A DNA stretch of 64,000 nucleotides. It comes from a virus (taxonomy: Duplodnaviria; Heunggongvirae; Uroviricota; Caudoviricetes). The stretch is from the IMG/VR virus record IMGVR_UViG_2537561946_000006. One strand, 5' to 3'. This document shows positions 45,001 through 48,000 of this stretch, piece by piece; position 1 is the first letter of the stretch, and each line of letters starts with the position of its first letter. The position numbers are program-made.

Positions 45001-48000
45001 AAATTTATAACCTTTTGATTTTGCGATTCGGTATCATCGGTCTCGAAAACCGGAGTAGGGGCAACTCTACCGGGGGTTCAAATCCCCCTCTCTCCGCCAC
45101 TTTATCAATGACTTATCTCCCGACTTCCCGTCTTGCTTTTCCTAAACAGAACAATCGTAGAATATTCTTGAAGGGTTAGATCGTCACTGTTTTCTGTTCG
45201 ATACTGTGACATTCAGCACTTGATTCGCTATGGATCTGACAGGAAGGTTTTGAGCGAAAATCTGCAGTTATTCAGTCGTTTTCTTATCGGTCACCATTAT
45301 TCTTTTAGACATTGATCCTACAAAGCTGCCGCAAAGTTGGTGGTGGGAACTGAAGTTGCGTAGAGAAGGGGTCAATACCCGGAGGCAAACATGGGCTGGC
45401 AAAAGTGTAGCGGCATTAGGCGCAGCTATTTAGCCTAGTTATGTTTTATGAAAACTTGATATCATATAAGTGTCTTACTTATTGGCTGTAAATAAGTTTT
45501 TCCTAAGGAATTGTTTCTTGAGTATCATTTGTAACTGTAACGGAATTTATAATCCTTTGCTTTATTGTTACGGTATTTTTTATCACACCCTATTTTTAGT
45601 GGTTTTTTATACTGAAGTTTGGCAAAGTGAACTTTATATACATATACTTCATCCTGATTTCAGTTAAATTGGGTGGATGATATGGCAACTACATGTTCAG
45701 TTATATTGATTTTGGAGTCCTTTGATGTTTATTTCGGAAAAGAGAGTGTGTTTCTGGAGAGAGGTTCATCTGTACTTGTCGACTCTAGATCTAGAGATTT
45801 TTTCCTGACATATCCTGAAAGAGTGATAGTGGCGGATTTTGGCGCTGAGTTTATTAGTCGCTATTTGAAAGCTAATAACTTAAGGGATATTTCTGATTGT
45901 AGGGAATATCCATCTTATTTAAAAATAAACTTTGCTGACTTCAGTTTAATTAAAGGATTAATTAGTTGGGCTAATCACTGTGCTGAATACATAGAAATTT
46001 TTGATGAGTCTATTGCTTTTACATGTCTCTCTGCATTTTCTTCTGAAAAACAATTTGGAGTATTTCTGTTTGGATGTTTGAAAAGCACAGGGGCTAAAGT
46101 TAAAACGATTATTCATACGGATTTATCTGCACCATGGCGTCTTAAGGATATATCATCAAGATTATATCTCAGCGAAAGTTTACTAAAGAGGAAATTGAAA
46201 GAAGAGGGGGTATCATTCAGTAAGATCATACTTGATGAGAGGATGCAAATGGCTGAATATTTACTCAGCACTCGTTGTTATCCTATTAGTAAAGTAGCTA
46301 AGGTCTGTGGTTATGCCAGTGTCTCATACTTTACTTATGTATTTAGACGTTATTTTGGTGTTTCTCCAAGTCAATACTCTCAGAGGAGTTCAGAAAGTAA
46401 AATTCTTACTCACCAGGGAATCTGATCATTGTTCTTGCCCCCTTATTTCCAGACAGGGGGTGTATCTTAAGTTAACGTTACCCGCTGACGTCGATATTCT
46501 CGCGGAGAGCGATAACCCAACGCACTGTGCGGATGGTTTTCATTGTAATGTTCGATCGCCACTGCAAGATTATGCAATGCCGTTCTTACATTCGGTTTCG
46601 GCATGAACGCGATGTAGTCTTCCTTCATCGTTTTCACGAACCTTTCTGCAATTCCATTACTCTGAGGACTGCTGATTGCCGTTGTGCAGGGCTCCAGATT
46701 CAACTCTCTGGCGAACTGCCGTGTTTCATGCGCTCTATACGCTGAACCGTTATCTGTCAGCCACTGGATGGACTGTTCCGGTACTTTATCGCCAAAGCGT
46801 TTTTCTATCGCTCCTAACATGACATCCTGCACTGTCGCTTTATCGTAACCTCCCGTGCTTGCGGCCCAGTCTATGGCTTCACGATCGCAACAGTCCAGGG
46901 CGATTCATCTGGGCCAATCCTCGCTCATAACAGGCATTCACTTCAGTCATGGCAGAAAGGTATGCATGCTGGAGAAGTCGTGAAAGAAAAGAAGACTGCT
47001 GCGCCGTTTGTCGTCACGTTTATCTTCATTGGCTATGCAAGTCGTAATACAAGGTGGGACAAAACTGAGACACATAAGGCCTCGCAATGGCTTGCAAGGC
47101 TTTACATGTTTTGATGTGGTGGGACGTGTGAGCGCAGTGTTGATGGGGTAATACTTTGAATTAGAAGCGGATTCTTATAATTCGTAATGCGAAGGTCGTA
47201 GGTTCGACTCCTATTATCGGCACCATTTAAATCAATAAATTACCTCACATTTAAGTAAACCACGTTCACCTCTTGTGCCGTATTTGTGCCATTGCGACTT
47301 ATAATCGCATCGATTTTGCTCGCGTGCTCGGTGAGATGCCCGGCTGAAAGGTGGGCGTATCTTTGAACCATTTCGAGAGTTTCCCATCCTCCCATCTCTT
47401 TAAGTGCAAGAAGAGAGACACCGGACTGAACCAGCCAGCTTGCCCAGGTATGCCTCAGGTCATGGAAGCGGAAGTTGCTAATGCCTGCCCGCTTTAACGC
47501 TCCCTTCCATGCCTTGTTGCTGTCGGTTCTCATCTTCCTTACCGCTGCTGTTTTTGTTCCGTCGCTTCGGTAGGCAGGTCTGGTGTGGACAAATACCCAT
47601 CTCTTATGGAGCCCCTGCTGTTTTCTTAATATCTGGCATGCGGTTTCGTTAAGAGGAACTCCGATCGCATTGCCAGCTTTTGTTTCATCAGGGTGCATCC
47701 ATGCCATTTTCTTATCCAGATCGACCTGTGACCACTCAAGGTCTGTAACGTTGGAACGGCGAAGGCCTGTCGTGATTGCAAACATGACCACAGGGAAGAA
47801 ATGAGGAGCAATTTCTGCAAACAGGTGCTTCGATTCCTCCTCTGTAAGCCATCTGATTCGTCCATTCTTAACGCGTGGTGTTGATATTTTGGGCGCCCTG
47901 TCAAGCCATCCCCATTCAACAGCTATATTGAGAATAGCGCGAAGTATTGCCAGATGCCGCGTCTTCGTTCCTTTGCTTGCCAGCTTTGGTTTATACTCCG

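Follow-up and report, generated by a model that had tools for sequence, protein, structure and literature searches.

How two different transfer RNA (tRNA) 3′ fragments come to lie 2 kb apart at the junction of two prophages is the question raised by a 64,000-nucleotide (nt) stretch of viral DNA (IMG/VR record IMGVR_UViG_2537561946_000006, Caudoviricetes), referred to as a whole as the window. A tRNA-Ser (serU) fragment ends the first element, prophage 1, and a tRNA-Thr (thrW) fragment adjoins the integrase of the second, prophage 2, as an earlier note on this sequence had recorded. That note considered tandem prophages with a rearrangement, possibly mediated by an insertion sequence (IS), or phage-borne attachment (att) cores, and held that neither prophage shows a standard attL or attR here. 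Our analysis indicates that the window quite likely combines a junction between tandem lysogens at thrW with the attR of an nleB2/nleH/nleF effector phage nested in a phage-borne relic of serU.

Both pieces are truncated copies of tRNA genes. Right-anchored comparison with the full genes identifies 45038-45099 (+ strand) as the last 62 nt of tRNA-Ser(CGA) serU (nt 29-90, including CCA; identity 62/62) and 47180-47225 (+ strand) as the last 46 nt of tRNA-Thr(CGT) thrW (nt 31-76; identity 46/46). The reference sequences were checked against annotated and ARAGORN-called full genes of other genomes. The absent 5′ parts amount to 28 nt in the serU fragment and 30 nt in the thrW fragment, and the sequence 5′ of both is unrelated to either gene. 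The two fragments lie on one strand, separated by an interval of 2,080 bp, and each core is single-copy in the window, with 0 copies expected from shuffled sequences. Re-inspection for full-length tRNA genes at both sites returned none, whether with ARAGORN or with Rfam at the gathering threshold and at E<=10; the weak Rfam matches were tmRNA/T-arm-like, or to a plastid 3′UTR family matching the antisense of the tRNA-Ser 3′ end. The only two tRNAs that ARAGORN calls in the window are phage-borne, at 11.5-11.8 kb. Neither site has the complete cloverleaf of a functional tRNA gene, with the 5′ strand of the acceptor stem, the D arm and the anticodon stem.

Each fragment has the form of an att core, an exact tRNA 3′ part through CCA with its 5′ half absent, with its start a few bases to the 5′ side of the anticodon, at nt 29 in serU and nt 31 in thrW. 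Comparison with the attP sites of thrW- and serU-integrating phages, a check that the earlier note had proposed, bears this out: the thrW core is the annotated attP of mEp213, mEp043, HK446, HK542 and mEpX2, beside int in mEp213, HK446 and mEpX2, and the arm next to the serU core matches serU phages. The serU core adjoins an integrase in 14EC007, CD45 and Z1323HEC0067, and the same 62-nt piece is annotated as a pseudogene at the attR of SerU-LTIIb. Intact tRNA genes are present at the equivalent far-end positions in related genomes, both of which fall outside the window here. The two tRNA pieces are att cores left by tyrosine integrases recombining inside the 3′ part of a tRNA gene. Since a junction between tandem lysogens reads P-core-P′, the tRNA 5′ half is necessarily absent from it; the complete genes are expected outside the window, thrW at the left extreme of the array and serU at its native locus.

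The thrW core is flanked by arms of two phage families. To its left, 46920-47179 (+) is the P arm of a 'type B' thrW attP, the right end of a family of myovirus-tailed lambdoid thrW prophages; over the 250 nt upstream of the core it matches the Z0117EC0148 attR arm at 100% identity. This arm is unrelated to the mEp213 P arm (0.25 identity), which assigns it to another family than that of mEp213. To its right, 47226-48648 (-) holds the P′ arm, the 'type A' thrW tyrosine integrase gene (47240-48400, -, 386 aa, Pfam Phage_integrase), which begins 14 bp after the thrW CCA, and an open reading frame (ORF) at 48277-48648 that lacks a Pfam match and is identified as excisionase by synteny with mEp213 and SfX. 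The right arm matches the Z1323PEC0014 attL arm at 250/250 and the attP of the free phage mEp213 at 98%. The phages SfX, mEp213, mEp043, HK446, HK542, mEpX2 and HK75 match 47180-48500 at ~98.5%, beginning exactly at the core, which mEp213-type records annotate as attP 'type CP4-6, similar to thrW and ptwF'. The type A integrase protein is 99.7% identical to that of Z1323PEC0014, where it follows full thrW, and 97.4% identical to that of mEp213, but only 53-54% identical to the type B integrase. Given a left arm that is type B at 250/250, a right arm that is type A at 250/250 and integrases of 54% identity, 47180-47225 is a P(B)-core-P′(A) junction between tandem lysogens, its arms traceable separately. 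The same P arm-core-int arrangement, with Avs2 cargo, occurs in the enterotoxigenic Escherichia coli 2014EL-1346-6, and the junction is found in at least 24 genomes.

Prophage 2 (47226-64000, +) matches Z1323PEC0014 and 377323_2f at 99.3% identity along its full length. In Z1323PEC0014 it stands directly after full thrW and ends in a second thrW core (L011 25789-25834) preceded by an mEp213-type P arm. The match to this genome and the mEp213-type arms identify prophage 2 as a degraded SfX/mEp213-type lysogen, for which a right-hand thrW core of its own is predicted ~1 kb beyond the last base of the window. For thrW, then, the tandem prophages considered by the earlier note are correct, and the apparent lack of a standard attachment site disappears, the junction being the canonical hybrid expected between two tandem lysogens.

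The main genome search was a megablast comparison with 5,426 complete E. coli genomes. Many of them carry a conserved block that runs from exactly 45037/45038 to about 47231 or 47294, and genomes sharing it have proA and full thrW on the left and yagP′-paoDCBA-yagU on the right. The order in Z0117EC0148 is proA, full thrW, integrase, a ~40-kb myovirus-tailed lambdoid prophage, pinE, GIY-YIG, the serU fragment, AraC, the IS2 remnant (IS2′), the thrW fragment, yagP′, paoDCBA and yagU, with exactly two thrW cores. This order and the two cores place the window in the thrW hotspot and make the 2 kb interval the terminal cargo of a thrW-integrated prophage. The O157:H7 thrW locus has the same block at 99.6% identity, followed by a P4-like satellite, and the module that carries the AraC gene is present in 658 of the 5,426 genomes, including O157:H7 at thrW. 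The locus is a proA-thrW...yagP′-pao integration hotspot and not two chromosomal loci fused together. Past the terminal thrW core of Z0117EC0148, ~70 bp (L001 8190-8260, compared with window 47226-47294) resemble the 3′ end of the type A integrase gene at about 59% ungapped identity, and in genomes with no downstream element megablast reaches window 47294. This likeness suggests that the supposed 'bacterial' flank preceding yagP′ is an ancient integrase/P′ scar.

The earlier note described the interval as holding only a low-GC AraC gene and an IS2-like remnant. Both are present, but the interval also holds 278 bp of serU-yodB spacer (45100-45377) and the ~260-bp type B P arm described above. 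The AraC-family regulator gene (45673-46425, +) matches Pfam HTH_AraC and HTH_18, has a GC content of 0.31-0.36 and is cargo of the relic. The remnant (46467-46903, -) is the C-terminal part of the IS2 transposase InsD, with Pfam rve/rve_3 matches at 46467-46832 and the annotation 'Transposase InsD for insertion element IS2' in PhiR70_1. Its position between the two fragments is what speaks for an IS2-mediated rearrangement that set the end of a serU-locus prophage beside a thrW-locus prophage. Such an event is scarcely credible: the remnant is conserved and internal to the module, which free phages and 658 genomes carry intact, and no variable breakpoint lies at the IS2 ends except the ancient boundary between module and P arm at ~46903-46920, all recent homology breakpoints falling at the att cores. 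More broadly, no rearrangement joining the serU and thrW loci, by an IS or otherwise, is needed, since 45038-47226 forms a conserved right-hand end of thrW-integrated prophages in ~12% of E. coli genomes, O157:H7 among them.

Turning to the serU junction, prophage 1 (visible part 1-45037, +) is a lambdoid serU-type phage with genes for effectors of a type III secretion system (T3SS). It matches the 14EC007 prophage at native serU at 99.94% over 1-4989 and at 99.7% over 30000-45377; prophages 99.7-99.9% identical to it occupy native serU in 14EC007 and many other genomes, and many genomes match 30000-45377 and then stop. The native order in 14EC007 is mtfA, full serU, int, DUF4224, exo ... nleB2, nleC′, nleH, nleF, YkgJ′, the 62-nt fragment and yodB. 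In the window, 44915-45037 (+) is the core-proximal P arm of a serU-type attP, the phage side of attR, with 400/400 identity to the attR arm of 14EC007 and of Z1323HEC0067. The corresponding arms of ev099, mEp332, PhiR70_1 and SerU-LTIIb are 82-86% identical, their megablast match starting from about 44915. On the other side of the core lies the 278-bp B′ arm of the relic (45100-45377, +), which matches the native flank of 14EC007 at 268/278 and the relic of Z0117EC0148 at 278/278. Homology to the native serU locus ends at 45377, and the SerU-LTIIb record, in which the 62-nt pseudogene stands before yodB, matches window 44922-45377. Comparison with 14EC007 and SerU-LTIIb thus derives 45100-45377 from the chromosomal serU-yodB spacer.

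Within this spacer, 7 fixed differences separate relic from native sequence. The window is relic-type at all of them and also agrees with the Z0117EC0148/CD45 subtype at two further sites (9/9 informative sites). A P arm equal to that of the nleF phage attR next to a relic-type spacer makes the window junction one of phage P arm, core and relic flank, with the switch from phage type to relic type within 45038-45130. The view that no standard attachment site is present does not hold here either, as this is a canonical attR (P arm-core-B′ arm) whose P arm is identical at 400/400 to that of the same phage at native serU.

The relic also travels outside prophages at thrW. The free phages ev099, mEp332 and PhiR70_1 carry the counterpart of 44915-46903 (P-like arm, core, 278-bp spacer, AraC and IS2 remnant) between their tail-fibre genes and a lambda-type attP/int, with homology to the module ending at 46903. 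The module is therefore phage-borne, and the alternative of phage-borne att cores proves essentially correct for serU. A reading of the AraC block as native serU flank was rejected, the native flank leading to yodB and the block occurring within free phages and thrW-bounded prophages. A single capture presumably gave rise to the relic, through an aberrant, lambda-bio-like excision of a serU lysogen, after which it would have spread by recombination between phages. Several lambdoid phages carry it in the non-essential stretch that lies just upstream of attP, and it forms the terminal cargo of the type B thrW prophage.

Carriage by free phages allows prophage 1 to be viewed as a single mosaic phage at thrW with its own thrW-type integrase, which inherited the module as b-region cargo, so that two prophages would stand in tandem with no nesting. 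Lambdoid phages are highly mosaic, and in the free phages just this module, P-like arm included, stands upstream of an attP/int of unrelated type. However, the window P arm is identical at 400/400 to the attR of the active nleF phage and only 82-86% identical to the fossil P arms of the free phages. The 99.9% likeness to the serU-integrated 14EC007 prophage extends up to the first base of the window, 5 kb from the serU-type integrase of that prophage, and the P arm at 46920-47179 comes from a family with myovirus tails, whereas prophage 1 has the lambda-like J/lom/stf tail of a siphovirus. A single mosaic phage is accordingly very unlikely.

Two complete genomes, CD45 and Z1323HEC0067, show what occupation of the relic looks like. 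In both, an nleF-type prophage is bounded on each side by a 62-nt serU fragment and lies between GIY-YIG and AraC of a type B thrW prophage; in Z1323HEC0067 the whole nested and tandem array is visible end to end. The empty site reads X-core-Y in Z0117EC0148, and also in GF8 and O157. The left junction of CD45 reads X-core-P′, its X arm identical to that of Z0117EC0148 (400/400) and its P′ arm 99% identical to the attL arm of 14EC007, and the right junction reads P-core-Y, with both arms at 100%. The window junction matches the latter.

The two nested cases are independent events. That of CD45 used a relic of the Z0117EC0148 subtype (X arm 400/400, right core with a 'TT' T-loop), and that of Z1323HEC0067 a relic of the O157/GF8 subtype (X arm 395-397/401, AraC-side right core with a 'GG' T-loop); their P′ arms are identical to each other (400/400). 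The variable-arm bases G19 and C30 of the phage core stay with P′ in every case, at native serU and at the relic alike, which confines the crossover to the core's first 18 nt (anticodon stem-loop). The O157-type relic (L019 15639-15700; AraC-side core of Z1323HEC0067, L017) has a mutated serU T-loop, GGGGGTTCAAATCCCCC -> GGGGGGGCAAATCCCCC, and its use in Z1323HEC0067 fits recognition and crossover that take place in the core's anticodon-stem portion. The relic would thus act as a portable secondary attB: the nleF phage would integrate by a crossover in these 18 nt and come to lie nested in a type B thrW prophage that itself stands in tandem with a third element. The visible window junction is exactly what integrase-mediated insertion into the relic would predict.

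The same two genomes bear on whether the window is an assembly chimera in which the nleF prophage end from native serU was joined to the relic of a thrW prophage through a shared repeat. A 93-nt exact identity inside a ~340-nt near-identical repeat sits precisely at the join, and no complete genome reproduces the full junction set. Yet the same join occurs in two independently assembled complete genomes, and at such repeats an assembler will usually end a contig and not make a false join. The window is moreover contiguous across many longer prophage and IS repeats, suggesting long-read resolution. We regard a chimera as highly improbable.

RecA-dependent exchange between the attR region of native serU and the ~97%-identical relic could also produce this junction, through a large inversion or translocation that involves no integrase. 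In K-12 gene order, thrW and serU lie ~1.8 Mb apart and in opposite orientation, and an inversion between them would unbalance the replichores. There are ~340 bp of homology between native attR and relic for such an exchange, the window prophage is 99.9% identical to the native-serU prophage of 14EC007, and the reciprocal junction is off-window; prophage-mediated inversions have been noted in Shiga toxin-producing E. coli (STEC) (PMC8112680, supporting text). On the other hand, the exchange in the window falls within 45038-45130, the first 93 of the ~340 shared bases, where an integrase would act, a placement with a ~27% chance under uniform homologous crossover. The two complete genomes also hold the reciprocal X-core-P′-int junction locally, which is the mark of integration and not of inversion. 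An origin by inversion or translocation is unlikely.

Nested insertion into the serU relic, next to a tandem thrW junction, remains in our judgement the probable structure of the window, and several observations weigh against it. The window begins ~5.1 kb inside prophage 1, leaving int, xis and the left att junction outside it; the int-proximal junction, the body of the type B prophage and full thrW are likewise off-window. The unseen left junction would be expected to have the nested form X-core-P′-int. Megablast with the whole junction (44300-48500 or 46650-47750) found it in 0 of the 5,426 complete genomes, and nested junctions occur in only two of them (CD45 and Z1323HEC0067), the relic being common and rarely occupied. 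The nested phages of these two genomes differ from the window phage in the early region, by which the window would represent a further, separate event. The 62-nt relic is presumably competent as attB, a property read from genome structures. Its proposed origin by aberrant excision is read from a chromosomal flank of 278 bp, and no donor locus for AraC, a full serU followed directly by AraC, was found; a protein scan of species-representative genomes gave a sole match of 37% identity in an Oscillibacter metagenome-assembled genome, which is irrelevant.

Several features of the serU-type phages accompany this structure. Prophage 1 encodes nleB2 (41167-42147, placed by gene order) and nleF (43755-44324, NleF Pfam match), together with nleC′/nleH remnants. 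The serU-type integrase is an uninterrupted 338-aa ORF with a C-terminal HxxR...Y region (L014 5965-7015, L012 31525-32575, L018 7415-8465). Its status as a pseudogene, taken from the flag 'frameshifted' of the Prokaryotic Genome Annotation Pipeline (PGAP) in three genomes, was dismissed, as translation shows an intact ORF and the flag concerns the extreme C-terminus only; the flag is probably an annotation artefact. The serU 3′ part that the phage supplies differs from the chromosomal one by two variable-arm substitutions, GTAGGGGCAACTCTAC -> GTGGGGGCAACTCCAC (L014 5848-5937; int-proximal cores of L012 and L018; compare window 45056 and 45067), which turn an A-U pair into a G-C pair. The tRNA-Ser expressed by lysogens at native serU would therefore have a variable arm that is compensated and of phage origin.

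Beside the effector locus, 44739-44836 (+) is a 99-nt copy of the ykgJ-ecpE region, with 92.9% blastn identity to this region of L011, and its counterpart in homologous prophages is annotated as a YkgJ′ pseudogene. Its origin and size match the attB-in-PP_2 site of Nakamura et al. 2021 (PMC8112680). A further phage may thus find a landing site in prophage 1, though the site appears unoccupied here. Further upstream, prophage 1 has a sok antitoxin RNA (hok/sok; 6025-6191), tRNA-Met and tRNA-Arg genes downstream of the Q region (11544-11796) and a match to the small RNA (sRNA) STnc100 (12567-12739), which are typical accessories of lambdoid prophages of enterohaemorrhagic and enteropathogenic E. 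coli (EPEC).

The thrW prophages carry cargo of their own. In the type B family, the segment between pinE and the P arm holds either the anti-phage gene Avs2 or GIY-YIG with the serU relic, AraC and IS2′ (L016 2424-6878 vs L004 43809-46625), so that the position immediately upstream of the type B attP serves as a swap site for defence genes and cargo. Prophage 2 comprises int, xis, an insertion of the IS3 family, cargo genes for a PACE transporter and LysR, exo-bet-gam, P′, cargo genes for an inverse autotransporter and a hydrolase, nin genes and an element of the IS3 family. In 48650-52105, an IS3-family element lies just past xis, its transposase frameshifted in a homologous genome, and part of the early-left region is replaced by the gene of a PACE-family efflux transporter (50659-51117, -) and, divergent from it, a LysR regulator gene (51221-52105). 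Genes for a 1,183-aa inverse autotransporter (intimin/invasin-like) and an alpha/beta hydrolase are inserted at 57539-62170, with a truncated replication gene P on one side and the nin region on the other; this adhesin cargo thus sits inside the degraded prophage. An Rfam match to isrC (63685-63807, 135 bits) falls within an IS3-family transposase gene, in its 5′ part, according to the Z1323PEC0014 annotation (L011 24430-25643). It was not used as a sign of a CP4-44-like island, and the isrC model may partly describe IS sequence here, not an independent sRNA gene.

Insertion of one prophage into another is an established mechanism. Nakamura, Ogura, Gotoh and Hayashi (PLoS Pathog 2021, PMC8112680) described 'prophage-in-prophage' integration through chromosome-derived attB sites in prophages, combined with tandem integration. 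Their attB-in-PP types derive from yecE (_1), ykgJ/ecpE (_2) and ompW (_3), with a host-chromosome origin proposed. That paper mentions neither serU (0 occurrences) nor thrW, and our literature search found no other paper linking serU to prophage-in-prophage integration. The mechanism is thus already published, and the serU-derived landing site is a new instance of it that we have not found described. We lean, if narrowly, towards regarding the module as an undescribed fourth 'attB-in-prophage' class, a fossil attR in the b-region of viable lambdoid phages and in thrW prophages that would provide ~12% of E. coli with a portable landing pad, the window being its third independent occupied case.

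If this is true, phages that carry the relic would let serU-specific effector phages lysogenise a second site, duplicating or relocating their nleB2/nleH/nleF cargo. The chromosomal flank is a provenance tag for the relic, which has been used at least twice independently as a landing site of T3SS-effector phages, and probably a third time here. This use extends the published mechanism to a new site and a new family of host prophages, and shows viable phages to be capable of carrying landing pads. The apparent anomaly is removed, with no call for chromosomal rearrangement or a non-standard att site. There are also practical consequences: prophage-boundary predictors based on tRNA fragments will mis-segment this locus, calling two elements where there are probably three (nested and tandem), and typing schemes that read a serU att scar as the serU locus will put the effector phage in the wrong place.

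The locus can be set beside several known systems. The K-12 cryptic prophage CP4-6 is bounded by thrW and by the thrW 3′ pseudogene ptwF. It shares with the window the chromosomal hotspot and the same kind of terminal thrW 3′ duplicate before yagP/pao, and phage records label the core 'type CP4-6; similar to thrW and ptwF'; the occupants of the hotspot are not the same. In Shigella flexneri, experimental infection with SfX and then SfI gave tandem prophages at thrW, the newcomer entering at the attL of the resident (PMC3306764). The integrase/attP family is the same, the window int region being 98.6% identical to SfX DNA, as is the site downstream of proA, and entry at the attL of the resident leaves an internal att junction. 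The window partners differ in having unlike integrases (54% identity) that share one 46-nt core, and in that the downstream one is degraded to a remnant into which IS elements and cargo have been inserted.

SerU-LTIIb (KU052038) and other serU lambdoid prophages resemble the serU side of the window in the 62-nt serU pseudogene at attR, the homologous P arm and the spacer towards yodB. They sit at genuine serU with yodB next, whereas the window spacer is truncated after 278 bp and leads to AraC, IS2′ and the thrW att site. The gal and bio transducing phages of lambda offer a parallel for the proposed origin of the relic, in which a phage would have kept attR (P arm-core) and adjacent bacterial DNA. 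Here, this origin is suggested by structure, the captured piece is small (278 bp of chromosome plus AraC/IS2), and the relic has since moved among phages with at least two unrelated integrases.

The closest counterpart is the prophage-in-prophage system (PMC8112680). In both, an attB copy with chromosome-like flanks lies inside a prophage and is used by a lambdoid phage that normally occupies the chromosomal site, which for the nleF phage is serU. In both, this process and tandem integration build complex prophage clusters and move or duplicate T3SS effector cargo, as described for EPEC and STEC. Empty and occupied reciprocal junctions are likewise found in genomes related to the window, which itself shows only P-core-Y. 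Unlike the three published attB sites, which stand beside an exchangeable effector locus, the present one derives from the tRNA gene serU with its serU-yodB spacer and stands beside pinE, GIY-YIG and AraC cargo. The relic is carried by free, plaque-forming lambdoid phages as well, and the fossil P arm in some of its carriers indicates that what was captured was an attR and not just an attB.

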